A stretch of 64,000 nt of DNA from Candidatus Peribacteria bacterium (GTDB lineage Bacteria; Patescibacteriota; Gracilibacteria; UBA1369; 2-02-FULL-48-14), in the NCBI GenBank assembly GCA_943349825.1, contig CALQZQ010000006.1, forward strand, positions 17,582-81,581, in the 5' to 3' direction. The notes under the pieces are model-generated. The model was not told the DNA's origin and did no database searches. It worked only from the letters and a program-made list of their open reading frames with translations. Below, piece by piece: positions 42,495 to 64,000 of the stretch. A program made the position numbers and the translations under genes. Each line of letters starts with the position of its first letter. Position 1 is the stretch's first letter.

Positions 42495-42530
42495 GAAAAT
42501 ACCGCCAGCGGGTTGCGCGGCAATATTTTC
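42495..42530 (-). terminator. long hairpin terminator after the 42542 paralog
   Basis: The minus-strand RNA is GAAAAUAUUGCCGC...GCGGUAUUUUC, a ~13-bp stem, followed by UCUGUAAUUUUAAAAUU. Confidence 0.6.
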
Positions 42531-42541
42531 TGAGTTGTCAA

Positions 42542-42937: not shown

Positions 42938-43032
42938 AGAGGGTGAAGATTAAGTGGGTAAGTTGGTGAGGCGTAAGTCTGTGCGCACAGAGATTTTGGT
43001 CTATTTTTTGGCTTTAATAAGCCATTTCGTCT

Positions 43033-43437: not shown

Positions 43438-43646
43438 AGAAATGCGGATTCTTCTAAATGGGATTGTTTGAGGATGGATCGAAAAGTTCCTTGAGGGATT
43501 TCTTTTTTATTCATGGGAAGTATGACGGTGAGAGTGGGGTCGCCATTCTTCCTAAACTTCCCATGACTGCCGTGCTGTCCGACGAAAAAGAAGCCGTCTG
43601 ATTCCAATACTTTTGCGATTTTCTTGGAAGAGTACAGCTTAGGCAT
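43434..43646 (-). CDS. hicA: HicA-family mRNA interferase toxin
   Basis: 70 aa. KKIAKVLESDGFFFVGQHGSHGKFRK is the HicA/YcfA dsRBD-like pattern with the catalytic GSH. Confidence 0.85.
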   Translation of the reverse strand: MPKLYSSKKIAKVLESDGFFFVGQHGSHGKFRKNGDPTLTVILPMNKKEIPQGTFRSILKQSHLEESAFL

Positions 43647-43851
43647 AGCTCCAAGGCATAGAAATCAGTTCCGGTTTTTCTACTTTTGTCACGGTGTGAT
43701 CGTCCTGGAAGTATAATTCCAGTGCTTCTTTGAGATTCTTCACCGCTTCATCCTTTGTTTTTCCAAAGCTAGAAACTTCCACATTGAGACACTGAGAAAC
43801 ATAGTATTTCCCTTCTTTCCAGACCAGGACTTGTAGATTGGATAGGTTCAT
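43639..43851 (-). CDS. hicB: HicB-like antitoxin (short form, no DNA-binding domain)
   Basis: 70 aa. KEGKYYVSQCLNVEVSSFGKTKDEAVKNLKEALELYF is the HicB N-domain pattern. It overlaps hicA by 8 nt. Confidence 0.75.
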   Translation of the reverse strand: MNLSNLQVLVWKEGKYYVSQCLNVEVSSFGKTKDEAVKNLKEALELYFQDDHTVTKVEKPELISMPWSYA

Positions 43852-43857
43852 GGGTTT

Positions 43858-43866
43858 ATTTTAGCA
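43858..43866 (-). promoter_or_regulatory. extended -10 (TGcTAAAAT) 6 nt before hicB ATG: leaderless
   Basis: On the minus strand TAAAAT is at 43858-43863 and the ATG at 43851. Confidence 0.5.
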
Positions 43867-43893
43867 TGAAATAGTGAAGTGAACATTCAATCT

Positions 43894-45822
43894 CTACTTC
43901 GCCTCTCCCTCCACAACAGATCCTTCTTCCGCCGGCTTGTCGTCCGCAGGTTTTTCGTCCTTCGGGTAAACCTTCACATCGGGGTCGTTGGTGGCGCCGG
44001 CTTCGGCACCGGCAGCATCGGGCTGGGCGTACATGGCGGCGCCGATTTTTTGGAGTTCGGTGGAGAGAGCGTCGCTGGCGGACTTCAAGTCTTCCTGAGA
44101 AGCCTCTGCGTTTTCGAGGAGTTTTTTGAGGGCGGAAAGTTTTTCATCTACGACGGGTTTCACGTCTGCGGGGACTTTGTCTCCGAGGTCTTTGAGGGTG
44201 CGTTCGGTTTGGGAAACGAGGGATTCAGCGGTGACGCGAGCCTCCACGGATTCCTTCTTTTTCTTGTCTTCGTCCGCGTGCATTTCGGCTTCTTTTTTCA
44301 TCTTTTCAATCTCTTCTTTGGAGAGTCCGGAGTGGCCGGTGATGGTGATGTGCTGCACTTTGTTGGTGGCTTTGTCCGTGGCTTTCACGTTCATGATTCC
44401 GTTGGCGTCGATGTCGAAGCTCACTTCAATTTGAGGCACGCCGCGAGGAGCGGGGGGGATGCCGTCGAGTTGGAAAGTTCCGAGGAATTTGTTGTCCTTC
44501 GCGATGGGGCGTTCTCCTTGGTAAATGCGCACTTCCACGGAAGGTTGGCTGTCCGCTGCGGTGGAGAAGGTTTGTGATTTGGAAGTGGGGATGGTGGAGT
44601 TGCGTTCGATCATCGGGGTGAGCACGCCGCCGAGGGTTTCGATGCCAAGGGTGAGGGGAGTCACGTCGAGGAGCAAAATGTCTTTCACGTCGCCTTGCAG
44701 CACTCCACCTTGAATCGCGGCGCCGAGGGCCACGACTTCATCCGGGTTGATTCCGCGGTGAGGTTCACGGCCGAAAATTTCTTTGGCCTTGGCTTGCACG
44801 GAAGGCATACGCGTCATACCTCCCACGAGCACCACTTCCGCGATGTCGCTGACAAAGACGCCGGAATCGTCGATGGCCTTTTTGCAAGGGCCGGCGAGTT
44901 TTTCGAGCAGTTCGGCACAGAGGTCTTCCAACTTGCTGCGAGACAGTTTGATCACCATGTGTTTGGGACCGTTTTTGTCTGCGGTGAGGAAGGGCAGGTT
45001 GATTTCGGTTTCGTGTTGGCTGGAGAGTTCGATCTTTGCTTTTTCTGCGGCTTCTTTGAGACGTTGCAGCGCGACCTTGTCGTCCTTGAGGTCGATGCCT
45101 TCTTGTTTTTTGAATTCAGCCACGAGCCATTCGATGACGACGTTGTCGAAATCGTCTCCTCCCAAGAAGGTGTCTCCGTTGGTGGAGAGCACTTGGAATA
45201 CACCTTCACCGAGTTCCAAAATGGACACGTCGAAGGTTCCTCCTCCCAAATCGAAGACGGCGATTTTTTTGTCGCCGGTGTGTTTGTCCAGGCCGTAGGC
45301 GAGAGCCGCGGCGGTGGGTTCGTTGATGATGCGTTCCACGGTGAGTCCAGCAATTTCTCCGGCGTCTTTGGTGGCTTGGCGCTGCGCGTCGTTGAAGTAG
45401 GCGGGCACGGTGATCACTGCGCGAGTCACGGGTTCACCCAAGAATTTTTCCGCATCGGCTTTTACTTTTTGCAGCACCATCGCGCCGATTTCTGCGGGGC
45501 GACGATTTTTGCCTTCGAGCATGATGTCCACTTCGCCGTCTTTGCCGGTTTTGCATTCAAAAGGGAAGCGCTTGATGAGCTCGCTGACTTCGCTGGATTG
45601 GCGGCCGATGAGACGTTTGGAAGAGAAGATGGTGTTTTTTTCGTTCATCACCATTTGGCGTTTGGCAGAATCTCCCACCAGACGTTCACCGTCTTTGATG
45701 GCGACGATGGAAGGGGTGGTGTTTTTGCCTTCCACGTTTGGGATCACCGTGGCTTCTCCGCCTTGCATCACGGCGAAACAGGTGTTGGTGGTTCCGAGAT
45801 CGATTCCAATGATACGAGACAT
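43894..45822 (-). CDS. dnaK: molecular chaperone DnaK (Hsp70)
   Basis: GIDLGTTNT and [10 protein letters not shown] motifs, 642 aa. Confidence 0.99.
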
Positions 45823-51219: not shown

Positions 51220-52277
51220 AGTTTAAGTTCTGCCGCAGGCTCGGTGTATTGCTTGGCTTTGCTGAAATAAGTGGAATGGAGCCAGCGGGTTTCTTGGGTG
51301 CCGTCGCCGTGGGTGAGGAGGTATTTCCAGACGATTTCTCCGATGCCCAGGTCGCCGACATTGCTTAGGGTTTCCTCGGTTTCGTTGCTGGCGGTGTAGG
51401 GCCCGATCAGGGTGGTTTCGCGCCCGTCATCTTGTCCATAAAAACGGATCGTGGCTTCGTAGTAGCCTTCTTCTTGCGCCACCATCAAAAGGTAGTTGGG
51501 AGTGTTATTCACAAATTTGAGGTCTTGTTCGTCGGGGAAGACAGTGGCGTCCAGGCCGTCGCCGTAATCGTTGTAGTAAATGACATAGAGGCTGTGGTTG
51601 CGTTGCTCGGTGATTTCGAGCGCGGCGTCGAGTGCGGCGCGGTAAACGGTGGTGGAGACTTGGCACACGCCACCGGCGGGAGCGGGTTCTGCCACTTTGC
51701 CATCCACAATCACGAGCGCACGCTTCCAGCCTCCGTACTCAATCGGGCCGAGGAAATCCAGGTAAGAAAATTCGCCTCCTGGTGGAATGAGCACGCCGTT
51801 GAATTTTTCGTTGAGAGCCTTTCTTATATTGAACTCGCGCTCGGGTGAAGATCCCCAAAAGGTGGATTTCCCCTCGCCGAGCAGTTGCAGTGGGCCTAGG
51901 TCCACGCCGGTTTCATTGAGGATTTGCCCGGGCAGCTTTTGGATGAAGGGTGTGTTTCGCCCCAGGGTGATTTGCAGGCGAGTGAGGAAGTCGATGAGGT
52001 GGTATCCGTCCGCTATTGTGCCGGTTTGGGTGACCTTGGAAACTTGCGTGGGATCGGCGGCGGTGATGTGGATGTCTTTCGCGGGCGAGTCCACGAGAGA
52101 GTGCAGCGTGCTGGTGACGTAGCTGAGGAAGGCCGGCGTGAAGCCCGTGGGAGTGAGATCTTTTTCTTGAGTGGGGAAGGTGTAGGTGGTTCCGTTGGCC
52201 TCTATTAAAAGATCCGCGTGGGCGGTGGGGGCGGCGAGCAGGAGTGCTGTTGCCAGCGTGAGGTAGGCGATTTTCAT
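51216..52277 (-). CDS. VanW-family protein, secreted
   Basis: The ATG at 52277 gives the signal peptide MKIAYLTLATALLLAAPTAHA. VanW core PAGGVCQVSTTVYRAAL. Confidence 0.8.
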   Translation of the reverse strand: MKIAYLTLATALLLAAPTAHADLLIEANGTTYTFPTQEKDLTPTGFTPAFLSYVTSTLHSLVDSPAKDIHITAADPTQVSKVTQTGTIADGYHLIDFLTRLQITLGRNTPFIQKLPGQILNETGVDLGPLQLLGEGKSTFWGSSPEREFNIRKALNEKFNGVLIPPGGEFSYLDFLGPIEYGGWKRALVIVDGKVAEPAPAGGVCQVSTTVYRAALDAALEITEQRNHSLYVIYYNDYGDGLDATVFPDEQDLKFVNNTPNYLLMVAQEEGYYEATIRFYGQDDGRETTLIGPYTASNETEETLSNVGDLGIGEIVWKYLLTHGDGTQETRWLHSTYFSKAKQYTEPAAELKL

Positions 52278-52403
52278 GGATTCAATTGTAGCAGTGTTGG
52301 GGCTTGCGCCAATGGTGAGTATAGCCTCACCACAATTGTGCAAAACGAGCCAGTCGAAGTATGTTTTTTGTCAGGACTTTTGGTGACGGGTGGGGGTAAA
52401 ATT

Positions 52404-53237
52404 ATGGCGTCTTTTAATCTGTTAAATATGACTGATGAACAACTCCTTCGGCTCTGCGAAAAATTTGGGAAACGGGCACTGCTGTGGCGGCAAAAGTTTA
52501 CAGGACTACTGCCGGAAGTGAATCGGCGGCGGCTTTATGAGAAGCGTGGGTGTCAGAGTATTTTTGAGTTTGCCTACAAACTTGCCGGACTTTCCAAGGA
52601 ACAAGTTCAGAGGGCTGTTCAGTTGGAAAGGACCTTTTTGGACAAACCGGCGCTTCACGAACTCTTGGTGCGGGGTCAGGCGAGTTTGAGCAAGCTCGCT
52701 AAAATAGCCTCCGTTGCTACTTTGGAAAATGAGGAATTTTTGGCCGAGCAGGTGAAACGTTTACCCAGAAAAGCCTTGGAAACTTTGGTGAGGGACGAGC
52801 GTGTTTTTGAAAAGCAAAATGGCGTACCAAAGCCATTATTTGCGGTAAAAGTTGTTCCCGGGAACAACTTTGAATTGTCCGATGAAGTGGTGCAAAAGCT
52901 GAGGCGCCTCCACGAGCAGGGGCAGGATGTGGATGCGATTCTTTTGGGGCTTCTTGAGCTACGCGAGGAAAGGATCGCTCGAGAGAAAGAAGAAGTTGCG
53001 AGCGGGTTGAAGGCTACGGATTCTCATTATATTCCGGTGAGGGTACGCCGCGTGCTTCGGGAGGAATTCGGCAAAAAATGCTCCATTATGACTTGCCCAA
53101 AACCCGCTGAAGAAATCCACCATACTCAACGGTTTTTTTTGGGACGTTCACATGACCCGCACTATCTTGCGCCCCTTTGTCACGAGCATCATCAGCTGGC
53201 GCATGCCGTGGATGTGCGCGTGAGGGAGCATTGGTAG
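52404..53237 (+). CDS. HNH endonuclease with N-terminal helical (DUF222-like) domain
   Basis: The ATG at 52404 gives MASFNLLNMTDEQLL. The C-terminal HNH motif is EIHHTQRF...APLCHEHHQLAH. Confidence 0.75.
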   Translation: MASFNLLNMTDEQLLRLCEKFGKRALLWRQKFTGLLPEVNRRRLYEKRGCQSIFEFAYKLAGLSKEQVQRAVQLERTFLDKPALHELLVRGQASLSKLAKIASVATLENEEFLAEQVKRLPRKALETLVRDERVFEKQNGVPKPLFAVKVVPGNNFELSDEVVQKLRRLHEQGQDVDAILLGLLELREERIAREKEEVASGLKATDSHYIPVRVRRVLREEFGKKCSIMTCPKPAEEIHHTQRFFLGRSHDPHYLAPLCHEHHQLAHAVDVRVREHW

Positions 53238-53250
53238 TGTAGTGAGCACG

Positions 53251-53286
53251 CCCTCACCACGACCGGTAGTGGGAGGGTGATTTTTG
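53251..53286 (+). terminator. terminator after HNH gene
   Basis: CCCTC(A)CCAC-gaccggta-GTGGGAGGG followed by TGATTTTTGG. Confidence 0.65.
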
Positions 53287-53529
53287 GAGCCACTATTGCC
53301 GTGTCGTGTGCAAAATAGTTGTGCAATGAGTGCGGCGCTTTAGCAAGTAGTTTTTCTTGAAAAGTTGCGCCCCCACTTAACAGGTTTAAAATCGCGCAAT
53401 CTGCAAACTGTTGCATACAAATTGTGCACATCTTCCGCATCCAATTTAAGCATTGTCTTGACGGTGAATATTCTGCGTCCTAGGGTGGGCTTACTTTCTA
53501 CAGCTCGTTCAAAAAACTTATACAAGGTT

Positions 53530-54486
53530 GTGCATAAAAGTTATCCAGCTTCTGAGCCGCATCATGAGTCCGTCCTTCTAAAGGAATCACTCGAAATGCT
53601 GGGCCTGAAGCCGGGGATGACCGTAGTGGATTGCACCTTGGGACTCGGAGGACATTCAGCAGAAATACTGAAAGCCATCGGACCCAAAGGACATCTCTAC
53701 GCCTTCGAAAAGGATGCAAGAAACCTGAAAGTTGCAAAGGAACGACTTGGGAAGATCGCGAAAAATTTCACTATTTTCCACGATTCATTCAGCTCATTGA
53801 CAGATCGGCTAAGGAGGGAAGGGGCATCGTTGTTCGATGCTATTCTCTTTGATCTAGGACTCTCCTCCCCACATGTTGACGATGCTGCCCGCGGATTTTC
53901 TTTCTCCAAAGAAGGCCCGCTGGATATGCGCTTCGACCCCCGACAGAAGAAAACAGCTGCCGACGTTCTCAATTCCTACACGGAATCGGACCTCGCGGAT
54001 GTGTTCTATAAGTACGGGGAAGAACGACAATCGCGAAAACTCGCGCGTGCCGTTGTCGATGACCGTCGAAAGGGACCGTTTGTCTCCACGCAACAGTTTC
54101 TATCCTTTTTGGATCGTGTTCTCGGGAGAGCCAAGTCCGGCAAGAACCGGGCCCCCCAAATTTTTCAAGCCCTCCGCATGGAGGTGAATGAGGAACTGTT
54201 GGCCCTGGAGCTTGGTCTCAATCAAGCGATTGAGCTTTTAGCTCCTCACGGACGCGTGGTTGTGCTCAGTTACCACTCTCTTGAAGACCGCTTTGTTAAG
54301 CAGCTCTTCAAGCAACTGGCCACAGACCTCCGCGATCCGAATGACATCTTTGGGCGCAGAGTCCTCAGGTCAAAGAGCCTTTCCCTCCTTACTAAAAAGC
54401 CGATCAAACCCTCCGCAGAGGAGGTATCCCGTAACCCGCGAGCTCGCAGCGCTGTGCTGAGAGCCGTAGAAAAACTCCCCACATGA
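53530..54486 (+). CDS. rsmH: 16S rRNA (cytosine1402-N4)-methyltransferase RsmH
   Basis: HESVLLKESLE, DCTLGLGGHS and FDLGLSSPHVDD motifs. The GTG start at 53530 was chosen to keep the conserved N-terminus, so the start is uncertain. Confidence 0.9.
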   Translation: MHKSYPASEPHHESVLLKESLEMLGLKPGMTVVDCTLGLGGHSAEILKAIGPKGHLYAFEKDARNLKVAKERLGKIAKNFTIFHDSFSSLTDRLRREGASLFDAILFDLGLSSPHVDDAARGFSFSKEGPLDMRFDPRQKKTAADVLNSYTESDLADVFYKYGEERQSRKLARAVVDDRRKGPFVSTQQFLSFLDRVLGRAKSGKNRAPQIFQALRMEVNEELLALELGLNQAIELLAPHGRVVVLSYHSLEDRFVKQLFKQLATDLRDPNDIFGRRVLRSKSLSLLTKKPIKPSAEEVSRNPRARSAVLRAVEKLPT

Positions 54487-54830
54487 TTCCGTTTATTTCT
54501 AATCTCCGCGCCCTCTTCATTCGTAATGAACGGCTCAGTTTTGCGTCCGCCGGAGCTCTCATGCTCCTGATGGTGGTGGGCATGGGCATGGTCTCGCTCA
54601 CGTCGCTCAACGACAAAGCCATGAAGGGTTATCAGCTCAACAAATTGGAAACTTCACACGAACAGTTGGTGCAGGATGGGGAAGTGACAGACATGCTGTC
54701 GCTCCGCGCGCGCTCCATGAGTGTGATCGAGGCCGCCACGACTTATATGGTGAAGCCCGACCGTACAGATATTACTTATGTACTGCCGGTGGCCGTGGTG
54801 GCATCGAACGATTCCGAGCTCAGTTATTAA
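54483..54830 (+). CDS. FtsL-like single-TM division protein (tentative)
   Basis: 115 aa with one TM then a coiled segment. It overlaps the rsmH stop by 4 nt, which is the usual FtsL position. Confidence 0.45.
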   Translation: MIPFISNLRALFIRNERLSFASAGALMLLMVVGMGMVSLTSLNDKAMKGYQLNKLETSHEQLVQDGEVTDMLSLRARSMSVIEAATTYMVKPDRTDITYVLPVAVVASNDSELSY

Positions 54831-54873
54831 AAACGACACCCCATTTTAATGGGGCTTAAGGGGAAATCGCACA

Positions 54874-54902
54874 AAGCCCTCCGCAAGGAGGGTTTTGTGT
54901 TT
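54874..54902 (+). terminator. rho-independent terminator
   Basis: CCCTCC-GCAA-GGAGGG followed by TTTTGTGTTTG. Confidence 0.8.
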
Positions 54903-54956
54903 GACGTGCCCGGTGGTGGCTTTGCCTGCGCTATGCCGCGCGCTGCTGAGTGGTAC

Positions 54957-54984
54957 TTGACATAACAAATAAAATGGGTATAGT
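54957..54984 (+). promoter_or_regulatory. promoter TTGACA-16-TATAGT for the thioredoxin-led cluster
   Basis: TTGACA at 54957-54962 and TATAGT at 54979-54984. Confidence 0.6.
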
Positions 54985-55007
54985 ATGCCTACTTCTCTTT
55001 ATAAAAA

Positions 55008-55811
55008 ATGCCTAAAACTCCTGATCCTTTTCGTAGCTCTCGGCCCGGTGAAAGTGAAGCAGCTGCGCTTGCTTCTTTGCATAAAACATTAGGCGTTCCA
55101 GCAGTAGCTCCTAGTCGTTCGGCGGCTGTGGATTCTGTTGTTCGAAGGGATATGGCTGGCTTGGCTGCGCGTGCTAAGGCCATTGCTCCTAATCCTGCAC
55201 CGCTCGCGATTGCGGCGCCTGCGCTTCCCCCAGATCTTCCCGTAGAACCGGCTCCTTCGGGCCGTTGGATGCTTCCCTTGGCTATTGTTAGCTCTTTTGG
55301 GATGACGATGTGTTGTGCCGGATCGTGTGGAGGGCTTTTTACGGCCGCTCAGTTTGGAATGTTTTCGAGCGACGAAGTGTCTGATCATGAGGCTGTGCCT
55401 TATAGCCCTCGTCGAGCTTCTACAAGAACTACTACGTTGCCTAGTCCTAGTGCTGGAGGATCTAAATCGCCGACGACTAAAGGTAAAGGTGTGGAAGAGG
55501 CTACGGATGCGAATTTTGACCAAGCCATTGAAAGAGGGGACACGCCCGTGTTCGTTGATTTTTATGCGACTTGGTGTGGACCTTGTAAGGTTGAAGCACC
55601 CTTATTGGAGCAGATGGCTGCAAAATATGCCGGTAAAGTAGTGGTGTTGAAGGTGGATGCGGAGGCTTCTCCTGAAACTGCGAAACAATATGGGATCAAT
55701 GCGTATCCTACTTTGGTGGAATTCAAACATGGCAAAGAAGTGAAACGCATAGAGGGCGCTCTGGATTTATCTGAACTGGATGCTGAATTTGCAGCTCTTA
55801 TTAAAAAATAA
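55008..55811 (+). CDS. membrane-anchored thioredoxin (N-in, Trx domain outside)
   Basis: 267 aa. It has an ~85 aa Pro/Ala-rich N-terminus, the TM segment WMLPLAIVSSFGMTMCCAGSCGGLF, a Ser/Thr/Pro linker, then a canonical Trx domain FVDFYATWCGPCK. Confidence 0.85.
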   Translation: MPKTPDPFRSSRPGESEAAALASLHKTLGVPAVAPSRSAAVDSVVRRDMAGLAARAKAIAPNPAPLAIAAPALPPDLPVEPAPSGRWMLPLAIVSSFGMTMCCAGSCGGLFTAAQFGMFSSDEVSDHEAVPYSPRRASTRTTTLPSPSAGGSKSPTTKGKGVEEATDANFDQAIERGDTPVFVDFYATWCGPCKVEAPLLEQMAAKYAGKVVVLKVDAEASPETAKQYGINAYPTLVEFKHGKEVKRIEGALDLSELDAEFAALIKK

Positions 55812-55814
55812 ACC

Positions 55815-57122
55815 ATGTCTACTGCTTTGGATCAGCAACGGGAGGGCCAAGAAGGGGTTTTGCTAAAGAAGCTGGGTTTGGGTGCGGCCATCGGTCTTTT
55901 TACCGGTACTGTTGCAGCGACTTCTTTGGCGGTGTGCGCCGGTGTGGGTTATGAAGTGCTCACGCATGAGAGTGACAACTCCGAGGCTTTGCCCCAGGTG
56001 CCGGTTTCTCGTAGAGAAGCGGCTCGACAGTCGCGAGCTCCCCATGCTCCTAGTACTCCCAGGAGTACGGCCAGTTCCTCGAGGCCTACTGCTTCTTCTG
56101 CCGTACCGGCCCAGGTGCCCACTCCTACACTCACTCCCACAGTGCTCCCCGATACCTTGCCTGCCAGCATTACGGCTTCGCTTGCCGAGAAAATTCGAGC
56201 TCGATTGGAACAATTGGATGCGGCGGATGGCTTTGACGGACCTTTGTTTTTGGGTATGCAAGAGAGTGGTTTGCCTGATGGGCGAGACCAATATATCGGT
56301 ACTCCGGGCTTGAAGATTGTCCCTTATCAGGAAGTGGCCGATCTCGCTAAGCCGGGGGAATACCTGACTTTTTTGATCGATACGATGGATTCGCCTCAGG
56401 ATGCAGCTGAACTCACGCACCCTTTTTTCTTGCGACCGGGGGACAGCACTCAGTATCCCGGTTTCCCCCAAGATATTATCCAGCGTGAACAGGGAGATTG
56501 TGATGATTATTCGATTTTAACGCAGTTGGCTTTGAGCCGTTTGGGCCAGAGAAAAGGAGTGGATTATCACCCTCGTGTTATTGGTGAAGTTCCTAAAGGG
56601 ACCACTGTGGGTCATGCAGTAACGATCTATGATGAGAATGGAGTTCCTTTTACCATCGATCAAAATCTCCCCAGACCTTTCCATGGTATTTCCGAGGCTT
56701 CTTCTTTCTTTCCTCGTGTGGACAGGGCCCATTGGATTGAAATAACGGTTGCTACTCCGAACCGCAGCTACCGTTTGCCCATCAGCGGAGGAACTCTACA
56801 ACCTGACTATAGAAAGGAAATGGTGGCGCGCTTGAACGGTGAGACTTATGCTGGTGAGGGGTTTGACTTTTCTAGTTTGCCCTCCGGCTGGGATCACTAT
56901 AGTGGTGGATTGTTATGTTTTGCACCGGATGCTGATGCGGAGTGTGCCCAAATGGTTATTTTACAAGATGGCAAACTGAATCAGGTTTCTTATGAGACCG
57001 GGGCTTTGGCTTGGCAGAAGTACGATCGGAATGGGAAGTTGGAGGCTGAAATTTTCCGCTCGGGGTCCACTCGTGTGATTGAATATCGCGATGGGCAAAA
57101 GGTAAATGTGGTCCCTTTTTAA
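55815..57122 (+). CDS. membrane-anchored protein with transglutaminase/papain-like Cys-His core and MORN/YwqK-like C-terminal repeats (tentative)
   Basis: 435 aa with a TM at ~20-44 and a Pro/Ser/Thr linker. Motifs are QGDCDDYSILTQLAL ... VGHAVTIYDENG ... IDQN, and the C-terminus reads YETGALAWQKYDRNGKLEAEIFRSGSTRVIEYRDGQKV. Confidence 0.45.
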   Translation: MSTALDQQREGQEGVLLKKLGLGAAIGLFTGTVAATSLAVCAGVGYEVLTHESDNSEALPQVPVSRREAARQSRAPHAPSTPRSTASSSRPTASSAVPAQVPTPTLTPTVLPDTLPASITASLAEKIRARLEQLDAADGFDGPLFLGMQESGLPDGRDQYIGTPGLKIVPYQEVADLAKPGEYLTFLIDTMDSPQDAAELTHPFFLRPGDSTQYPGFPQDIIQREQGDCDDYSILTQLALSRLGQRKGVDYHPRVIGEVPKGTTVGHAVTIYDENGVPFTIDQNLPRPFHGISEASSFFPRVDRAHWIEITVATPNRSYRLPISGGTLQPDYRKEMVARLNGETYAGEGFDFSSLPSGWDHYSGGLLCFAPDADAECAQMVILQDGKLNQVSYETGALAWQKYDRNGKLEAEIFRSGSTRVIEYRDGQKVNVVPF

Positions 57123-57150
57123 GGTTCAATAGTTTGATTAAAACAAATAC

Positions 57151-57179
57151 TTGACAATGTGTATATCTTGTATTATATT
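57151..57179 (+). promoter_or_regulatory. promoter TTGACA-17-TATATT
   Basis: TTGACA at 57151-57156 and TATATT at 57174-57179. The ATG is 23 nt downstream. Confidence 0.65.
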
Positions 57180-57202
57180 GACACTCTCTAACTTCTATTT
57201 CT

Positions 57203-59434
57203 ATGTCTAGTCCAGCAGCTCCAGATGACGCTTTGGTTCCAGTGGCTCCCGGTGATTCCACCGACGTGGTTGTAAGCCCTCGTCCTGGTCGCAGAGAACT
57301 GGCGAATGTGGTGGATGAACTCAGAAGTGGCGGGAAACGCCCTAATATTGCTCGTATTCTTCGTCAAGCAGGGAATACCGATTTGGGTGCAATGGCTGGG
57401 GACTTGTCTTCTTATAAAGACGCTATAGCCAGCATGCTTCGTGACATCGCGGATGTAGAAGCTTTGGGGGATTCAACTTTGCAAGACCATGGAGCTAAGG
57501 CCGCAGCGGTACGCCGTTTGTTCGTTATGTTCATGAACCGTGAGCCTCAAGCCAATGAAGATGTGGGCACGATGATGGCTGAAATTCACCGTGTGCGAGA
57601 AACTTTAGTGCAACGTGAACAAGACCTTATTAAACAAGAAGGAGCACTCACTCAGACTCGACGTGAAACAGAACTGGGCACCGCCATGGCTTTAAGTGGG
57701 CATGTGGGCGCTCTTGAAGAAGAAGAAATTAGTGCAGCCAGCGACAGAGCTGGCAGAGCAGATCGTCTTCATGGAGCACGTATGGCTTTAGCCAAACGAC
57801 GTGCTGGCCATGGGGTGGCTTTGCGTCAAACGGAAGATGAAGGAGAGTTGGCTTTGCGTGCTCAGGAATTGGCTAGAAAGCGTGGTGAACGCCCTATTGC
57901 TGAAGATCTTCTGATTTTAGCCGCTGATGAGAGACATGCAGCTGATGTTTTGAAGGAAGCCGCTCAAATTCGCTTGGATCGTGCTAAGGATGGCATTGCC
58001 GGAGCGGTTGCTGTGGATGAAAACAAGAGAGCTAAAGAAAACCATGAAGCGAATACAGCGAATGAACGCAATAAAAACTTGAGTTTGTACGCCATGTTCC
58101 TTGCTCAAACGGTATCCGGTTACTTGGCTGCTCAAGGTGTGCATGGAATGTCCTTGCACCCGGATAGTGCCAGTTCTTGGATTTTCCCTATTGGTGCTTC
58201 TGCGGCTTTGAATGGGACGATCTTTGTGGCTACGTCTCAATACTTACGTCAAAACTGGGAAATGCGTAAAAATCCTCTCCTCGCAGCTGGATTCTTGGCT
58301 GCAGCAGGTCTTACAGCCATCTCCGGTTATACGGGAGCTGCTCGTGAAATGATCCCTGAAACAGTGCTTGCGGATGCCGTTAAGGATCGTGTGGTGGCTA
58401 CCACGGAATTTGTAGAAGCCGCTCGTCCTGTAGTGGCGCAGAAATTTACTGCTCCCGCCAACTCTTTGGTGTTGGACATGAAGCAGGCAGGTGCCGCTCT
58501 CTACGACGAAGCGACAGGAAGAGGACCTTCTCATCAGTATGGTTTTAGAAACCATTCCATTGAGGCTTTGGCACGCTACCGTGTGACGGTGGACACTGCT
58601 TCTCGTGGTTTGGCCAGTGCTGGAATGTGCGATGACCTTCGTCTTATGGCTACGGATTACCAGGCTTTGGCTGACCGTTTCCAATACGAATACGAGCACC
58701 CCAGCCAAGCCGGTGGCTTTGCAGACACGTCCTTTGTGACTGTGGATGCTGATGGAAAAAAGGCTTACGACATGACTTTTGATTCTCAAGTCACCGCTTG
58801 TGATGCTGCTTACCCACTTTCACCTACAGAACTGATCACTTCTATCGATAGCGACCTTGCTTCTATCCGTGAAGGCTTGGGCGATGGAAGTATTCAGGAC
58901 ACTCCTCAACTCAACGAGCACATTCGAAACTTGAATGCTAGCCTGCAAAAACTGGCCAGTGCTCTCAAGTTGGACACCACTAAACTGGCTGATCTGGCTT
59001 CTGGTGTGACTCCTCATACCACTGAAGACGGTGCGCCTGCTGGCACAGCAGGCGAGGAAGATTCTGACGTCGACGAAGAAGTGGCTATGGATGGTTTGAT
59101 CGCTCCTGATCTTAAAGAATTGGAACCGATGACCTATGAAGCTTTGGGACTGCTTGTGGAGCACTTGGTGAACTTCTACGAAGCTGATTGGGATCACTTC
59201 TCCCTGAAGTATCCGTCTATGTTCGTGGTGGCTTCTGTCATCGATCAATTGGGTCTTATCTTGGCCATGATCGCGATTGCCACTAGCAAACGTGTGGATC
59301 AAAAAAATGCTGCTTATATTGAATCTCTCTCTCGTGTGCAGAAAGGTGAAGAACGGGCTCGCGGTCTCTTGGACCGTTTGAAGGCACGTCTTACCCCTGC
59401 AGCAAAACCTGTAGATGACGATCCTTTGGCCTGA
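57203..59434 (+). CDS. large orphan membrane protein (743 aa): ~290 aa charged coiled-coil N-domain, 3 TM, ~300 aa outside domain, 1 TM, charged tail
   Basis: Hydrophobic segments are LSLYAMFLAQTVSGYLAA, WIFPIGASAALNGTIFVATSQYL, LLAAGFLAAAGLTAISGYTGAA and FVVASVIDQLGLILAMIAIATS. No enzymatic motif. Confidence 0.65.
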   Translation: MSSPAAPDDALVPVAPGDSTDVVVSPRPGRRELANVVDELRSGGKRPNIARILRQAGNTDLGAMAGDLSSYKDAIASMLRDIADVEALGDSTLQDHGAKAAAVRRLFVMFMNREPQANEDVGTMMAEIHRVRETLVQREQDLIKQEGALTQTRRETELGTAMALSGHVGALEEEEISAASDRAGRADRLHGARMALAKRRAGHGVALRQTEDEGELALRAQELARKRGERPIAEDLLILAADERHAADVLKEAAQIRLDRAKDGIAGAVAVDENKRAKENHEANTANERNKNLSLYAMFLAQTVSGYLAAQGVHGMSLHPDSASSWIFPIGASAALNGTIFVATSQYLRQNWEMRKNPLLAAGFLAAAGLTAISGYTGAAREMIPETVLADAVKDRVVATTEFVEAARPVVAQKFTAPANSLVLDMKQAGAALYDEATGRGPSHQYGFRNHSIEALARYRVTVDTASRGLASAGMCDDLRLMATDYQALADRFQYEYEHPSQAGGFADTSFVTVDADGKKAYDMTFDSQVTACDAAYPLSPTELITSIDSDLASIREGLGDGSIQDTPQLNEHIRNLNASLQKLASALKLDTTKLADLASGVTPHTTEDGAPAGTAGEEDSDVDEEVAMDGLIAPDLKELEPMTYEALGLLVEHLVNFYEADWDHFSLKYPSMFVVASVIDQLGLILAMIAIATSKRVDQKNAAYIESLSRVQKGEERARGLLDRLKARLTPAAKPVDDDPLA

Positions 59435-59466
59435 TTCATTCCACCTTACAATAACTTTCTCTATTT

Positions 59467-61428
59467 ATGGCAACTCGTACAACCGATCTCACCGACGCTG
59501 AATTGGAGCCTACTCCAGAATACGAAGTGGCTGATGCCCCTCGTTTGGCTCAAGAATTAGTGATTGATTTGCAAAATGATGTCCAACATCCTGCTTTGGA
59601 GCTTCTCAGTATTCGAAACGCGGAATTGGGGGCGGCTTTGGACTTGGATCAGCGCATTGCAGACGCTGTTTTGCGTGATACTTATCCTCATTTGCGCCGT
59701 TTGTTGGAGCAGAAGATTCGTGTTCGTAATGCTCAGATGAAGGACCCTTTCCTTGTGGAACAGCGTAGAGACAAATTAGACCGTTTGCGTCAGCAACGTC
59801 AGGAGCGTAGCGATGCTGCAGCTCGCAGGGCTATGGTTCGTCGTGCGACTCCGTTGGCGCTTGTGGGAGGAGCTCTCCTTGCAGGTGGAGTGACCGCTTT
59901 TAACGTGGCGCGTCCGGAAATTTTGCGCATCTTGGCTCAAAATCAAATCAATATTGTGGCGACTGACAATTTGAGCAATCGAGAACTGGCCACGACCACT
60001 CCTAGTAGAGTAGATCTGAAGGGTGTGCCTATTCGTTTTGCCTGTATTAAAACCGCTGATGGAACTTGGGAAGCAGGCGATATTCGAGATGTCTTTACGG
60101 ATGAGACTTTGGAATCCAGTTCTTATCCCTACCAGGTTAAGTTTGGGGGAGGGGTAGATCCTGATTTGAGTGTGGCAGAGGCGGGTTGGGGGACTACGGT
60201 CCTTTTCCCTCCTGCGAAAGTGAGCGCGAATTTCCCGGCAGCCTATGGGGCTACTGCGGTGCTCGCCAATGGGTCTGCTGTTTACAGCATTCCTACGGGA
60301 CAATTTATCACTGATCCGGAGCATGTACTCCCTGCTGAATTCACTACAGGCGAACACGCGCAAGATGGTTCTTTGGTTCATTACGTTCTCGTCAGTCCGG
60401 ATGGTCCTGCTTGTGCCGGTGCCGCCACGGATGCTGATCCTGAGCTGAAAATGGTGGATGCGACTTTGGACACCGAGTACCCTGAACTCTCTTTGGAAAA
60501 CTTGGCTGGCGAAATGCCGGAAGTGGATGGAGCTTATACGGAACAGTTTGCCAAATATGGCTTAGATACTTGGTATAGCCGTACTTTCTACCCCAACTTG
60601 GTACTTTCTTTTGACACTGCTGTGCGTGAAGCCAGTAAATCGGGAGTGTCTCGTGACAAACTGCAGATCATGGCCGACTTTTTGACCAATCATACCTTTG
60701 AAAAGAGTCTTCTCCGACTCTTGCAATACTTGCAAGCTAACGTGAAGAAAGACACCTTCCAACAATTTGTGGACCAGCTCAAAAAGAGCAATGCTCCTCA
60801 TTTTGCCATCAATGTGGACGAAGCCTACGAAACTACTGGTTCACATGCCCACGAGCCTGATCGTGTGGACGAAGCACGCCAGGGTTGGGTTACGGCCTAT
60901 CCTTCCGACTTGAACGAAGGAGTGCTGTTCGATGGACTCATTCGAGAAATTTCCCATGCAGCGCCCACTCCAGGGATGGCTGCTTATTTCACGGGAAATC
61001 CTTTGGAAAACCGTCCTCAAGATTACGTCTTTGATCAAGGTATTGGATATTTCCTTACTGAAAAAGGTATTGGTACTGCTGCGGGTACCCCTAGCCAGCA
61101 GCTTATCGAGCGCTTGGTGGATAAAGGCCAAGTGGATGAAGTGATCCGTTTCTGGACTTACAATCCAGACGACAAATTGAGCGAAAACGGAACGGCCCTC
61201 TTCAATGATACGACCCTTTCTCTTCCTGCATCTCTTCGACAACAGGATATTTACGATGCGATCCTTGAGGCTTCCACTTTGGACAAACCTCTTGCAGAAG
61301 TGACTCCCGACGAAAAAGCTCAGCTCACAATCTTTGTTCAGGCGCATGATAAATCTGTTTCAGGAGATGAAACTATTGAAGGCGCGGCTCAAACAATGCT
61401 GGGAGCTCTGGAGACACTGAGCCAGTAA
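59467..61428 (+). CDS. large orphan bitopic membrane protein (653 aa): ~125 aa charged N-domain, 1 TM, ~500 aa outside domain
   Basis: The TM segment is ATPLALVGGALLAGGVTAFNVA. No recognised motif. Confidence 0.65.
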   Translation: MATRTTDLTDAELEPTPEYEVADAPRLAQELVIDLQNDVQHPALELLSIRNAELGAALDLDQRIADAVLRDTYPHLRRLLEQKIRVRNAQMKDPFLVEQRRDKLDRLRQQRQERSDAAARRAMVRRATPLALVGGALLAGGVTAFNVARPEILRILAQNQINIVATDNLSNRELATTTPSRVDLKGVPIRFACIKTADGTWEAGDIRDVFTDETLESSSYPYQVKFGGGVDPDLSVAEAGWGTTVLFPPAKVSANFPAAYGATAVLANGSAVYSIPTGQFITDPEHVLPAEFTTGEHAQDGSLVHYVLVSPDGPACAGAATDADPELKMVDATLDTEYPELSLENLAGEMPEVDGAYTEQFAKYGLDTWYSRTFYPNLVLSFDTAVREASKSGVSRDKLQIMADFLTNHTFEKSLLRLLQYLQANVKKDTFQQFVDQLKKSNAPHFAINVDEAYETTGSHAHEPDRVDEARQGWVTAYPSDLNEGVLFDGLIREISHAAPTPGMAAYFTGNPLENRPQDYVFDQGIGYFLTEKGIGTAAGTPSQQLIERLVDKGQVDEVIRFWTYNPDDKLSENGTALFNDTTLSLPASLRQQDIYDAILEASTLDKPLAEVTPDEKAQLTIFVQAHDKSVSGDETIEGAAQTMLGALETLSQ

Positions 61429-61435
61429 AAAGAGG

Positions 61436-62260
61436 CTATTCCCCCCTGCGTGGCGCCGGCTTTGTAGTTGGCGCTGCAGGTGGGGTAGTATCTCTTGGGG
61501 GGGTCGCAGGTGTAACAGGAGCTGCAGGCACTGGAGGAGGATTTTGTGCGGGTGCAGTAGGTGTGGCTGAAGGCGCCCCGTCTGTCACGGTTTTTGAACC
61601 AGGAGCTGCAGGCACTGGAGGAGGATTTTGTGCTGGTGTGGTAGGAGGTAGTGAGGGTGCTGCGTCAGGCGCGGTTTTTGAACCAGGAGCTGCAGGCACT
61701 GGAGGAGGATTTTGTGCGGGGGCTCCAGGTACAGCTGGGGGAGTTGCAGTCTTAGCATCCGGTAGGTAGGGGAAAATATCTACGCTTACGTTGCTAAATC
61801 CACTCGCTACACTTGAGGCGGCGCGGGTGATGGTCAGTTTACCTCCCACTACGGTCATGGTGTCTCCGGGGAAGAGGGAGTTGATTTCCTTGCCACTGGG
61901 TTGGCTGAGCATGTAGCGGTAAGCCAAGAGCATCAGTTTTGAGGTACTCAATTGGGCAGCCGGTACTTTGTCGAGGAGTACTTTCGTCACGCTATCGCCG
62001 GATTTTGCAGTATAGCCAGGCATGTTTAGCGCAATTTTTGGAGGAATAGCGCTGGCGACGTCGGTTGCTAATTTGTCTCGCTGAGTAGGCGTATTTTTAG
62101 CGTACTCTAAGGCGTGCGTAGTCGCTTTACCGGAACTAGCATCGGTCCAACGTTCTCCTCCCGCCGCTTCCAAATACATTTGTCGGGAGGGATTTTCGAA
62201 GTGGGAAAGACGTTTGCAGCGCAGCATTTTGTTTTTGTTAAATTCTTTACATTCTAACAC
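61436..62260 (-). CDS. protein with C-terminal Pro-rich 28-aa tandem repeats
   Basis: 274 aa. The repeat (T/A)PAQNPPPVPAAPGSKT occurs three times. The N-terminal start is uncertain because several Met lie in the first 30 aa. Confidence 0.55.
   Translation of the reverse strand: MLECKEFNKNKMLRCKRLSHFENPSRQMYLEAAGGERWTDASSGKATTHALEYAKNTPTQRDKLATDVASAIPPKIALNMPGYTAKSGDSVTKVLLDKVPAAQLSTSKLMLLAYRYMLSQPSGKEINSLFPGDTMTVVGGKLTITRAASSVASGFSNVSVDIFPYLPDAKTATPPAVPGAPAQNPPPVPAAPGSKTAPDAAPSLPPTTPAQNPPPVPAAPGSKTVTDGAPSATPTAPAQNPPPVPAAPVTPATPPRDTTPPAAPTTKPAPRRGE
61518..61720. repeat. three copies of an 84-bp tandem repeat (in-frame, coding)
   Basis: The core ggagctgcaggcactggaggaggattttgtgc recurs at 61518, 61602 and 61686. 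Confidence 0.9.
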
Positions 62261-62299
62261 AAAAGAAGCTTTGTTTCAAGCTTCTGAAGTGCGGGGACT

Positions 62300-63007
62300 T
62301 TATTTTGCGGTTTTGAGGTAGTGGATCACGCGATCATTTATTCCTGGAACTTGAGGGCAGAGGTCGGCAGGAGCGGTCATGGCTTTGTCGTATACGCCGT
62401 CCCCTTTTGCGGTGACAGTGACAGGTGTTCCACTGGTCCATCCCGTCCAGTCGATGCCTGGAGTGGGGCACCCATCGAGGAAAGTGAAACTGGCGCTGCC
62501 GGCTTTAAATGTACCGTCTTCACAGATGAACGTATAAGCGGCACAAGAGCCTTCGGCTTTTACGCGGTCCGCTTTTTGAGCGTCTGTGCCTTTATCAAAG
62601 ATATCAGGAGCCAATTCCCATCCTTTAGGGAGGGCTGTGTTTTTAACAGGTTCGGCAGCAGGTGTAGCGGGTACAACGGTAGGGGTCGCAGGTGCGACAG
62701 GAGCTTCAGGAGCTGGAACTGCAGGTACGGGCGCCGCTGGCAGTACTGGATCTGCCGGTACTACAGGGGCAGCCGGAATAGCCTCAGTTGAGGGAACTGC
62801 CGCCGCATCGTCTGCAGCATCGGCCACGGGAGCAGCTTCAGGAATGATTTGCTCGTTTGTGGCGAAAACTCCGAGTTTTACGGCGGCCAGTAGTGCTGCA
62901 AGACCTACCGTTCCAAAAGAGACAGTACTGCAGCCCACTGCGGCGCAGCCAGCTGCGAGTCGGTTGGATTTCTTGGGAGCGCCGACATTACGAATGATTT
63001 CAGGCAT
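62300..63007 (-). CDS. membrane-anchored protein: TM, Pro/Ala/Val-rich linker, Cys-containing C-terminal domain
   Basis: 235 aa. The TM is FGTVGLAALLAAVKLGVF and the linker is AAPVVPADPVLPAAPVPAVPAPEAPVAPATP. The globular end has 4 Cys. Confidence 0.6.
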   Translation of the reverse strand: MPEIIRNVGAPKKSNRLAAGCAAVGCSTVSFGTVGLAALLAAVKLGVFATNEQIIPEAAPVADAADDAAAVPSTEAIPAAPVVPADPVLPAAPVPAVPAPEAPVAPATPTVVPATPAAEPVKNTALPKGWELAPDIFDKGTDAQKADRVKAEGSCAAYTFICEDGTFKAGSASFTFLDGCPTPGIDWTGWTSGTPVTVTAKGDGVYDKAMTAPADLCPQVPGINDRVIHYLKTAK

Positions 63008-63086
63008 AGTAGAGGATATTTTAAGAGAGCTCTCTTTTTACCATAATCCTTTGAATACGTCAAGCGGAATAAAATTTAGCTGCCAG

Positions 63087-63115
63087 TTGCGATCTGGAGC
63101 GCGCTGGTTTATAGT
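63087..63115 (+). promoter_or_regulatory. promoter TTGCGA-17-TATAGT for aldolase gene
   Basis: The -35 is at 63087-63092 and the -10 at 63110-63115. Confidence 0.5.
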
Positions 63116-63141
63116 CGGCTCACCTTTATTTTGCATGTTTT

Positions 63142-64000
63142 ATGGACCTTTCTGCTTTACAAGAAACGGCTCGTGCTATGGTGGCGCCGGGCAAGGGAGT
63201 CTTAGCCATTGATGAGAGCCATGCCACCTGTAAAAAGCGCTTTGAGGCGCTGGGTGTGGAGTGCACGGAAGACACGCGCCGTGAATACCGCGAACTTTTG
63301 GTGGCGGCACCGGGAATTGGCCAGTACCTGGGTGGGATGATTTTGTTCGATGAGACTTTGCGCCAAAGCGCTCGTGATGGGCGAAAATTTGTGGATGTGC
63401 TGAAAGCGGCCGGGATTTTGCCTGGGATCAAAGTGGATACCGGCGCGAAGGATTTGGCCCTGCACGCGGGCGAACAAGTGACGGAAGGTTTGGATGGACT
63501 CCGCGACCGTTTGGGGGAATATAAAGCCTTGGGCGCGGCTTTTGCCAAATGGCGCGCGGTGATTAATATTTCTGACGTTTTACCGAGTGAAGCTTTAGTG
63601 ATGGCCAATGCGCACGCGCTGGCTCGTTATGCGGCTTTGTGCCAAGAAGCGGGAATCGTGCCCATGGTGGAGCCGGAAATGATCATGGAGGGCAGCCACA
63701 GCGTGGAGCGTTGTTATGAAGTGACGGCCCGTGTCTTAAAGGCCTTGTTTGGCCAGCTCGCGGAGCAGGGTGTGGCCTTGGAAGGAACGATTTTGAAGGT
63801 CAGTATGGTGCTGCCAGGGAAAGCGTGTCCAGTGCAGGTGAGCGATGAAGAGGTGGCCAAATGGACGGTTCGGGTTTTGAAGGAAAATGTGCCCGCAAAC
63901 GTAGCGGGTGTGGTGTTCCTATCTGGTGGGCAGAGCGATTCTCAGTCGACCTTACGTTTGAATGCTATGCATCAATTGGGTGAAGCGTTGCCTTGGCCTT
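63142..64000 (+). CDS. fba: fructose-bisphosphate aldolase, class I (3' end beyond window)
   Basis: My own translation from the ATG at 63142 gives MDLSALQETARAMVAPGKGVLAIDES...GIKVDTGAK...VEPEMIMEG...LKVSMVLPG...FLSGGQS. It is absent from the ORF track because no stop lies inside the window. Confidence 0.9.
   Translation, partial: MDLSALQETARAMVAPGKGVLAIDESHATCKKRFEALGVECTEDTRREYRELLVAAPGIGQYLGGMILFDETLRQSARDGRKFVDVLKAAGILPGIKVDTGAKDLALHAGEQVTEGLDGLRDRLGEYKALGAAFAKWRAVINISDVLPSEALVMANAHALARYAALCQEAGIVPMVEPEMIMEGSHSVERCYEVTARVLKALFGQLAEQGVALEGTILKVSMVLPGKACPVQVSDEEVAKWTVRVLKENVPANVAGVVFLSGGQSDSQSTLRLNAMHQLGEALPWP

Follow-up and report, generated by a model that had tools for sequence, protein, structure and literature searches.

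A four-gene membrane-protein cluster in a Candidatus Peribacteria chromosome and the smaller gene set kept by its distant relatives

Candidatus Peribacteria are a class of Candidatus Peregrinibacteriota, within the Candidate Phyla Radiation (CPR). In a 64,000-nucleotide (nt) stretch of one such genome (GenBank assembly GCA_943349825.1, contig CALQZQ010000006.1, positions 17,582 to 81,581; this whole stretch is called the window below), we analyzed a cluster of four genes that an earlier note, made from the sequence alone, had described as a thioredoxin-led system of membrane-anchored proteins. We found that the conserved unit is a different one, made up of gene 3, gene 4 and a convergent gene directly downstream of them, and that gene 2 is accessory. 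Our preferred reading, to which we give a probability of roughly 0.4, is that the cluster is a lineage-specific envelope-processing module under thiol-redox control, with a core and an accessory operon. The four co-directional open reading frames (ORFs) lie exactly where they were first described, with intergenic gaps of 3, 80 and 32 nt (lengths of products are in amino acids, aa):

55008-55811, plus strand: gene 1, ORF of 267 aa, membrane-anchored thioredoxin
55815-57122, plus strand: gene 2, ORF of 435 aa, transglutaminase-like (papain-fold) protein, membrane-anchored
57203-59434, plus strand: gene 3, ORF of 743 aa, polytopic protein of an unclassified family
59467-61428, plus strand: gene 4, ORF of 653 aa, single-pass protein of an unclassified family
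61436-62260, minus strand: convergent downstream gene, called product of 263 aa

The same four genes occur in the same order in every close relative (gene 3 identity 58-62%), as the earlier note would have predicted, but three distant relatives keep only gene 3, gene 4 and the convergent gene, with gene 2 present in one of them on the opposite strand. Synteny among the close relatives carries little weight, as the entire 20-kb neighborhood is collinear in them. The three distant lineages, which we refer to as L015, L019 and L014, have gene 4 identities of ~28-30% and rearranged surroundings, and genes 3 and 4 and the convergent gene are adjacent in them. On the 206-kb contig L015, a gene 2 homologue (E-value 2e-27) is divergent from the gene 3 homologue, which is followed by the gene 4 homologue P0011 and then by the convergent-gene homologue, and there is no thioredoxin within 22 kb. 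The order in L019 is rsmH, an FtsL-like gene, a gene for an M23-peptidase protein, aldolase, fructose-bisphosphatase (FBPase), the gene 3 homologue, the gene 4 homologue P0016, whose start overlaps the gene 3 homologue by 4 nt, and the convergent gene; this locus has no gene 1 and no gene 2. L014 has a gene 3 homologue, a short gene 4 paralogue and then P0013, a gene 4 homologue with a C-terminal glutaredoxin domain (CGAC, Pfam E-value 1.7e-7) and no membrane segment between the gene 4 part and the glutaredoxin.

None of the three distant loci has the thioredoxin gene and only one has gene 2, so genes 1-4 are not an obligate unit, and we ruled out the idea that the four genes form a single obligate conserved unit. 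Of the system-level description given earlier, the two promoter-driven units are real, whereas the thioredoxin-led four-gene set is not an evolutionarily conserved unit. Judging from the sequences, a thioredoxin-fold partner was acquired twice in different forms, as the separate gene 1 and as the P0013 fusion, both times in lineages that lack the HExxH motif described below. Scans of metagenome contigs with the gene 3 and gene 4 alignments gave no further loci, a scan of genome contigs found one, and the families are confined to Peribacteria and related Peregrinibacteria. At positions 2001-4619 of L019, after the FtsL-like gene and in the slot taken by genes 1 and 2 in the window, we noted an 872-aa protein with Peptidase_M23 and DUF1615 domains and without an obvious signal or anchor.

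The convergent gene probably belongs to the conserved core, because it stays beside the gene 3-4 pair in distant relatives; homologues on the opposite strand after the gene 4 homologue are found in L015 (39% identity, E-value 7e-28), L013 (7e-19) and L019 (8e-11). Its product begins with ~150 aa that form a conserved domain and ends in a Pro/Ala-rich tail; it has no signal peptide and no membrane segment, and it matches no Pfam family even at an E-value of 10. In the tail, an 84-nt tandem repeat at 61516-61720 (2.4 copies, 87% matches) gives a 28-aa unit (..PAQNPPPVPAAPGSKT..). We noted that each 28-aa unit has one Gln and one Lys, which are the residues cross-linked by transglutaminases. The product also has a LysM-like look (YTAKSGDSVTKVL ... 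FPGDTMTV), which stayed unconfirmed when hhalign was run against a LysM consensus (only 14 columns aligned, 73% probability).

Gene 4 belongs to a rare family, with 14 representatives in 1.84 billion proteins by a full HMMER profile search, nine of them at an E-value of 1e-30 or better, and three further clusters in 5.8 billion proteins by a word-indexed search. Six full-length distant members (P0011, P0012 and P0014-P0017) have HExxH at one aligned column, in the variants HELTH, HELFH, HELIH, HELMH, HEFAH and HEYNH, and a seventh member, P0018, has HExxxH (HEIFGH) and a downstream Glu. This Glu is invariant in all seven motif-bearing members, where it is found 28-40 residues past the motif in the context xEG(M/F)(T/N)E. 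At the HExxH column the gene 4 product of the window reads LFDGLIREIS (residues 487-496, nt 60925-60954), and the Glu is replaced by Gln at about residue 523; taken together with its close orthologues, the sequence is (V)LFD(G/A)LIR at the first column and Gln, Ala or Leu at the second. P0013 and the fragment P0023 likewise lack both motifs. Because the two motifs are either present together or lost together across the family, gene 4 appears, so far as motifs can tell, to descend from an uncharacterized HExxH...E hydrolase family and to have lost its catalytic activity. The earlier note could name no motif in genes 3 and 4; we also matched neither to a characterized family, but the gene 4 family does carry HExxH...E, which has been lost in the window clade.

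In the gluzincins M1, M61 and Peptidase_MA_2 the third-ligand motif is xEG(F/M)(T/A); ImmA/IrrE (M78) are another example of HExxH...E zinc hydrolases. The distant members of the gene 4 family resemble gluzincin-type HExxH...E hydrolases in having HExxH with a Glu 28-40 residues later in the context given above, a putative likeness to the M1/M61 motifs, and in that both motif positions fall in predicted helices (low-confidence model). Unlike gluzincins, gene 4 of the window lacks all three residues, and the family has no significant match to a hidden Markov model (HMM) or to the PDB. Profile searches of the PDB with gene 4, with the 17-member family and with the HExxH subset gave nothing below an E-value of 0.08, and the IrrE active site appeared at a non-significant 2.8. 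Neither gene 3 nor gene 4 has a Pfam, NCBIfam, PADLOC or PDB sequence match, and when the distant homologues of genes 2, 3 and 4 were run against Pfam and NCBIfam, no family was matched for gene 3 or gene 4 except by the glutaredoxin domain of P0013. The AlphaFold2 models were unusable, with a predicted local distance difference test score (pLDDT) of 41 for gene 4 (4-sequence alignment) and 45 for gene 3 (3-sequence alignment), and Foldseek searches of the PDB with these poor models found nothing at an E-value of 0.001 or below. We disregarded the top Foldseek matches, which were alpha-pore-forming toxins and chemoreceptor sensor domains and reflect long helices only.

By hydropathy and charge, gene 4 would be an N-in single-pass protein, with a beta-rich predicted outside domain at ~183-340 that is followed by a helical domain. 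Cys193 and Cys316 are near-invariant in the beta-rich domain, which also stands alone in short paralogues of 313-368 aa. Gene 3 begins with ~290 aa of variable, helical or coiled-coil sequence that is predicted to be cytoplasmic, and hydropathy then gives three moderately hydrophobic segments (~292-377), a strong transmembrane segment at 674-692 and a K/R-rich tail (K/R, lysine or arginine). Between the segments lies a strongly conserved domain of ~290 aa (~381-672, nt 58343-59218), predicted with low confidence to be helical, that has an invariant Cys476/Cys533 pair and an EATGxG...GF motif. A model with four spans, both termini inside and the conserved domain outside fits gene 3, because a loop at 346-358 and the tail are both K/R-rich. 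Its distant homologues are L015_643 (32% identity, E-value 2e-61), L014_640 and L019_647 (88.8 bits to the gene 3 profile), and the word-indexed search of 5.8 billion proteins added two further clusters.

The architecture that had been described as common to all four products, with an N-terminal region, one or more hydrophobic segments and a large C-terminal domain, is borne out by hydropathy. The placement of the large domains outside the membrane is favored by hydropathy and charge for genes 2-4, but the flanking charge is ambiguous for gene 1. Each predicted outside domain of genes 2-4 has one Cys pair that is invariant (near-invariant in gene 4) and is kept down to 21-30% identity, namely Cys368/377 in gene 2, Cys476/533 in gene 3 and Cys193/316 in gene 4, and Cys is entirely missing from the parts of genes 3 and 4 that are predicted to be cytoplasmic. 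This pattern fits disulfide-bearing domains outside the cytoplasm and a role for a local thiol-disulfide oxidoreductase, as far as sequence goes. Constraint is also highest in the predicted outside domains and not in the cytoplasmic coiled coils: compared with orthologues, the outside domain has 74-80% identity in gene 3 and 60-69% in gene 4, and the N-terminal region 49% and 38-44%, respectively. The gene 3 figures do not favor the suggestion in the earlier note that genes 3 and 4 are scaffolds relaying through cytoplasmic coiled coils.

Gene 2 matches PF04473 (DUF553) over residues 216-286 (nt 56460-56672) with 25.2 bits against a gathering cutoff of 20.5 (E-value 1.2e-5), and all four of its homologues match this family as well. 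The protein contains the motifs GDCDDYS, GHAVT and IDQN, and homologues with 48%, 47% and 28% identity all keep Cys229, His267 and Asp282, which upholds the original description of a Cys-His-Asp arrangement like that of transglutaminases or papain-fold peptidases. Cys368 and Cys377 form a second invariant set that is kept down to 28% identity. A short N-terminal region leads into a single membrane segment and then a Pro/Ser/Thr stalk, and the K/R counts on either side of the segment (3 versus 0) clearly favor an N-in, C-out orientation. We predict that gene 2 encodes an active enzyme, the only one in the cluster. DUF553 is in the transglutaminase branch of the papain-fold enzymes, a branch to which wall-cutting enzymes, among them pseudomurein endoisopeptidase, also belong (PMC10318531). 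The superfamily is that of Makarova, Aravind and Koonin (1999), and DUF553 has relatives in C71 (pseudomurein endoisopeptidases) and C93 (BTLCP proteinases) (reviewed in PMC10318531). Gene 2 is like this superfamily in scoring above the gathering threshold and in having Cys, His and Asp invariant in the expected motifs; it is unlike it in being anchored on a Pro/Ser/Thr stalk, in coming from a CPR bacterium and not from archaea, and in that ~100 aa before and ~145 aa after the core match nothing. MORN/YwqK-like repeats had also been reported in gene 2, and these did not hold up: MORN_2 scored 14.8 bits against a cutoff of 29.6 (E-value 0.034), no stretch passed by itself, and one of the four homologues gave the match. 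The PDB sequence-profile search with gene 2 returned coiled-coil or chance matches only, as did those with gene 3, gene 4 and the gene 4 family.

Residues 162-259 of gene 1 are a thioredoxin domain (PF00085, E-value 6e-29, 100.5 bits against a cutoff of 23.5; TIGR01068, 103.9 bits, above the equivalog cutoff of 96.8), so the canonical WCGPC thioredoxin first read from the letters is secure. The active site is at residues 189-193, and orthologues have WCPPC. Aligned without gaps to E. coli TrxA, the domain has 43% identity, with the buried Asp (VDF), WCGPCK and the cis-Pro loop (YPT) at equivalent positions. Scores to subfamily HMMs are far under their cutoffs, with 32 bits for ResA (cutoff 170), 29 for DsbE (123), 24 for TlpA (230) and 18.5 for StoA (210). 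The protein starts with an 88-aa net-positive, Pro/Ala-rich N-terminal region, followed by a hydrophobic stretch of ~30 aa, a Ser/Thr/Pro linker and the thioredoxin domain. The hydrophobic stretch is the only one (residues 87-118) and has 24% identity between orthologues. Within it Cys102, Cys103 and Cys107 are invariant, in a segment (residues 100-107, nt 55305-55328) that reads CCxxxC here and CCGC in orthologues. K/R counts on the two flanks of the anchor are 1 versus 0 over 15 aa and 1 versus 3 over 25 aa. The thioredoxin domain is probably outside the membrane; the main argument is that a cell would hardly export an 88-aa tail containing ten K/R.

Anchored extracytoplasmic thioredoxin-like oxidoreductases include ResA and StoA of Bacillus, TlpA, CcmG/DsbE, Etrx1/2 of S. 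pneumoniae and MdbA of Actinobacteria. We compared gene 1 with these, drawing on the weak NCBIfam matches. Like them, it has an N-terminal anchor, a thioredoxin fold and W-C-x-P-C, and it adjoins the gene of a presumed client. It is unlike them in being a classical thioredoxin, in its 88-aa N-terminal region, which is predicted to be cytoplasmic, and in the invariant Cys cluster of its anchor, and no CcdA or DsbD was seen nearby among the called genes that span the greater part of the 64-kb window or in the flanking 22 kb of relatives.

Both near-consensus promoters described earlier are present with 11/12 matches to the consensus, and their boxes are invariant in relatives; the upstream terminator, which we read directly, is likewise conserved:

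54957-54984, plus strand: promoter P1, TTGACA, 16 nt, TATAGT, 11/12 consensus, driving genes 1-2
57151-57179, plus strand: promoter P2, TTGACA, 17 nt, TATATT, 11/12 consensus, driving genes 3-4
54874-54902, plus strand: terminator-like hairpin, CCCTCC-GCAA-GGAGGG then TTTTGTGTTT, after the rsmH/FtsL-like operon

The boxes of P1 are unchanged in L003 and L006 and those of P2 in L003, L006 and L012, with the flanking intergenic DNA diverged in each case. The 64-kb window has five sites with at least 11/12 matches, compared with 0.55 expected in order-1 Markov random sequence, and all five are intergenic and just 5' of genes, the other three preceding rpoB, the EF-G gene and a TrmB-like gene; over the promoter scan as a whole, the total of sites is not above that of shuffled sequence. 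The -10 boxes of P1 and P2 both end 23 nt ahead of the ATG (54984-55008 and 57179-57203), which gives very short leaders of ~16 nt. Direct inspection found no Shine-Dalgarno sequence at any of the four start codons. In L003 and L006 the annotated start of the thioredoxin orthologue (7689-7715) overlaps the conserved -10 box, and translation probably begins nine codons further on, at a Met that lines up with the start in the window. The hairpin at 54874-54902 was missed by the automatic scan and is kept in L003 and L006; it insulates the cluster on the upstream side. A second hairpin, CCCCAT-TTTA-ATGGGG at 54838-54855, lies just past the stop codon of the FtsL-like gene, and in L003 and L006 its pairing is maintained by changes in both arms (CCCAAT..ATTGGG).

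The envelope-processing reading starts from what we observed directly, which is the gene structure, the family assignments, the conservation and loss of motifs, and the pattern of gene order. The core would be a membrane complex of the gene 3 and gene 4 proteins, probably together with the convergent gene product. In it, gene 3 would be polytopic with a helical outside domain held by a disulfide, and gene 4 would have an outside domain descended from an HExxH...E zinc hydrolase; because all three metal or catalytic residues are lost in the window clade, gene 4 would most likely serve there as a subunit that binds or regulates without catalysis. The second layer would be the accessory operon of genes 1 and 2, added upstream in the window clade. 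The anchored thioredoxin may set the thiol state of the catalytic Cys of gene 2, of the Cys pairs in the outside domains, or of both, while gene 2 may cleave or cross-link a peptide substrate in the wall or surface layer and the gene 3-4 complex may position or gate this activity. The topology, the physical association, the redox coupling and the substrate are the parts that we infer. We count in favor of this reading that the gap between genes 1 and 2 is 2-3 nt across all relatives and that a gene 2 homologue is beside the gene 3-4 pair in L015. The same goes for the family assignments, the adjacency of the core genes in the three distant loci, the two separate gains of a thioredoxin-fold partner, the joint loss of both gene 4 motifs, the Cys pairs and high conservation of the outside domains, the wall genes nearby, and the M23 peptidase that fills the slot of genes 1-2 in L019. 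Its themes are already known, in that anchored exported thioredoxins with a client enzyme and dead-enzyme subunits in membrane complexes have both been described.

Several points weigh against it. The thioredoxin domain of gene 1 is fully canonical and resembles the cytoplasmic type, the charges on either side of its anchor give an ambiguous signal, and in the genes and flanks covered none of CcdA, DsbD, DsbB and VKOR was seen. The distant loci lack the thioredoxin gene in all three cases and gene 2 in two, and small genomes such as these keep gene order over long distances, so adjacency is only a moderate pointer to shared function. The HExxH motif is short, and no HMM or PDB search ties the gene 4 family to a peptidase. 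There is also no fold-level tie to a known machine, given AlphaFold models with pLDDT 41 and 45.

Two other explanations seem to us unlikely, to about the same degree. The anchored thioredoxin could be a dedicated folding factor, an oxidase or isomerase that makes or repairs the structural disulfides in the outside domains of genes 2-4 instead of holding a catalytic thiol in the reduced state, much like MdbA or BdbD in Gram-positives. This would account for the presence of exactly one invariant Cys pair in each outside domain down to 21-30% identity, for the fusion of a glutaredoxin-fold CxxC domain to a gene 4 homologue, and for the failure to see a supplier of reductant (CcdA/DsbD) nearby. 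However, WCGPC or WCPPC and 43% identity to TrxA are typical of reductases and not of DsbA-like oxidases, distant relatives hold the same Cys pairs with no thioredoxin gene nearby, and no re-oxidizer (DsbB/VKOR) was seen either. Alternatively, there may be no integrated system at all, with genes 1-2 and genes 3-4 (plus the convergent gene) being separate envelope genes whose order was inherited, and with the shared layout of anchor, stalk and outside domain being simply how a Gram-positive-like organism builds exported proteins. The two separate strong promoters, the collinearity of the whole neighborhood in close relatives, and the persistence of genes 3-4 where genes 1 and 2 are missing or relocated speak for this explanation, and an unrelated downstream gene, at 62300-63007, shows this arrangement of anchor, Pro/Ala stalk and Cys-containing domain too. 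On the other hand, the gene 2 homologue of L015 still adjoins the pair despite an inversion and rearranged surroundings, the association of a thioredoxin fold with the gene 4 family arose twice, and genes 2 and 3 have no terminator between them.

In the FtsEX/EnvC-type system, activators that are dead peptidases are well established, and a quite unlikely explanation is that the cluster regulates wall hydrolysis at division in the manner of FtsEX with EnvC, PcsB or RipC, with gene 3 and the dead gene 4 controlling the gene 2 cysteine peptidase, which would cut septal peptidoglycan cross-links. By analogy only, the cluster resembles EnvC/NlpD dLytM proteins with FtsEX in that a dead metallopeptidase-like gene 4 is beside a polytopic gene 3 near division and wall genes, with a separate, predicted active hydrolase in gene 2. 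It directly follows rsmH and the FtsL-like gene, with mraY, an S11 carboxypeptidase, LytR-CpsA-Psr and VanW near it in several lineages, the M23 peptidase of L019 is in the position of genes 1-2, and DUF553 is grouped with wall-cutting papain-fold enzymes (PMC10318531). Unlike EnvC/FtsEX, the cluster has no ABC ATPase and no sequence or demonstrated structural relationship to that system; none of its proteins is homologous to FtsX, EnvC, PcsB or another division protein. Moreover, the intact HExxH in distant relatives means that a dead regulator is not ancestral, and the broad conservation of gene order in small genomes weakens the argument from the nearby FtsL-like gene. The apparatus for surface remodeling or for attachment to a host or other cell that the earlier note proposed, with genes 3-4 as scaffolds signaling through cytoplasmic coiled coils, is highly improbable. 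Gene 3 does have a long helical N-terminal region, and Peribacteria are inferred to be symbionts with unusual large extracellular Cys-rich proteins (PMC4736985). However, Pfam and NCBIfam scans revealed neither repeats nor domains of the adhesin type, conservation is lowest in the cytoplasmic regions, and the outside domains are modest in size (~300 aa in gene 3 and ~500 aa in gene 4) compared with the very large Peribacteria surface proteins (PMC4736985). The outside domains are also highly conserved, not variable as is typical of host-contact proteins, and they are under strong purifying selection without strain variation, which argues against this proposal. Nothing points to attachment or host contact.

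A bolder version of the core, which we consider very doubtful, is that genes 3 and 4 make up, with the convergent gene, a transmembrane machine specific to Peregrinibacteria and based on a new zincin-like family, in which two lineages independently lost the metal site and gained a thioredoxin-fold partner. If true, this would be a switch from metal-dependent hydrolysis to a thiol-redox-gated function. In its boldest form, the TrxA domain may be cytoplasmic and the Cys cluster of the anchor may carry electrons across the membrane, and gene 1 would then be a minimal one-protein counterpart of DsbD/CcdA.

A large part of bacterial diversity falls within the CPR. Its members live in attachment to other cells, very few of them have ever been cultured, and roughly half of their genes lack an assigned function. 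The cluster gives a first foothold for two orphan membrane-protein families, through the partnership of genes 3 and 4, the degenerate hydrolase site, the disulfide candidates and the repeated tie to a thioredoxin fold. On our envelope-processing reading, a canonical thioredoxin tethered beside a cysteine-dependent enzyme would let redox control outside the cell be tested on a concrete case. The finding has a limited reach, since the families are confined to a narrow CPR lineage, as the 14 gene 4 representatives mentioned above illustrate.

The cluster is chromosomal and not on a mobile element. The window is core chromosome, with a ribosomal-protein operon, EF-G, EF-Tu, rpoB/rpoC, dnaK, grpE and hrcA, and it also includes gap, fructose-bisphosphate aldolase, FBPase, mraY and an extracytoplasmic function (ECF) sigma factor with a FecR-like partner. 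The only searches directed at mobile elements were by tblastn, with gene 4 as query for phages and gene 3 for plasmids; neither gave a match, and the PADLOC defense models had zero matches to the cluster proteins. As had been reported, no ATPase, secretin, pilin or sortase is found in or next to the cluster, from Pfam and NCBIfam scans of the four genes and their neighbors and from precomputed Pfam annotations of flanking genes. Type VII, type IV and Tad-like secretion were ruled out, as no ATPase or other hallmark gene is there. Rfam had no match over 52000-64000, and no terminator was found between gene 2 and gene 3. Immediately 5' of the cluster are rsmH and the FtsL-like gene (115 aa), and the wall-related genes nearby are these two together with VanW, mraY, an S11 carboxypeptidase, the ECF sigma/FecR pair and S-layer homology (SLH) domain proteins.

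A few other features of the window are worth recording. The gene at 62300-63007 (minus strand) encodes a 235-aa protein with an N-terminal anchor, a Pro/Ala stalk and a small Cys-containing C-terminal domain, which is the layout of genes 1-2; its product is kept in close relatives (215-230 aa), and no homologue was detected in L015 or L019. At 52404-53237 (plus strand), 5' of rsmH in the usual position of mraZ, there is a 277-aa protein with an HNH-like C-terminus (HHTQRF..CHEHHQLAH) and no Pfam match. Two neighboring SLH-domain proteins of 199 and 213 aa are encoded at 20543-21805 (minus strand), which suggests that the organism has an anchoring system for an S-layer or a secondary wall polymer. 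A tandem pair of DUF6941 genes at ~42500-44000 (minus strand) is beside a HicA-toxin gene and its 70-aa partner, just downstream of dnaK, and DUF6941 adjoins dnaK in the distant locus L015 as well. Finally, rpoB and rpoC are ordinarily adjacent, but here a gene of the Na+/Ca2+ exchanger family (PF01699, 312-315 aa; 28263-29210, minus strand) lies between rpoC (24457-28266), which it overlaps by 4 nt, and rpoB (29222-32761).

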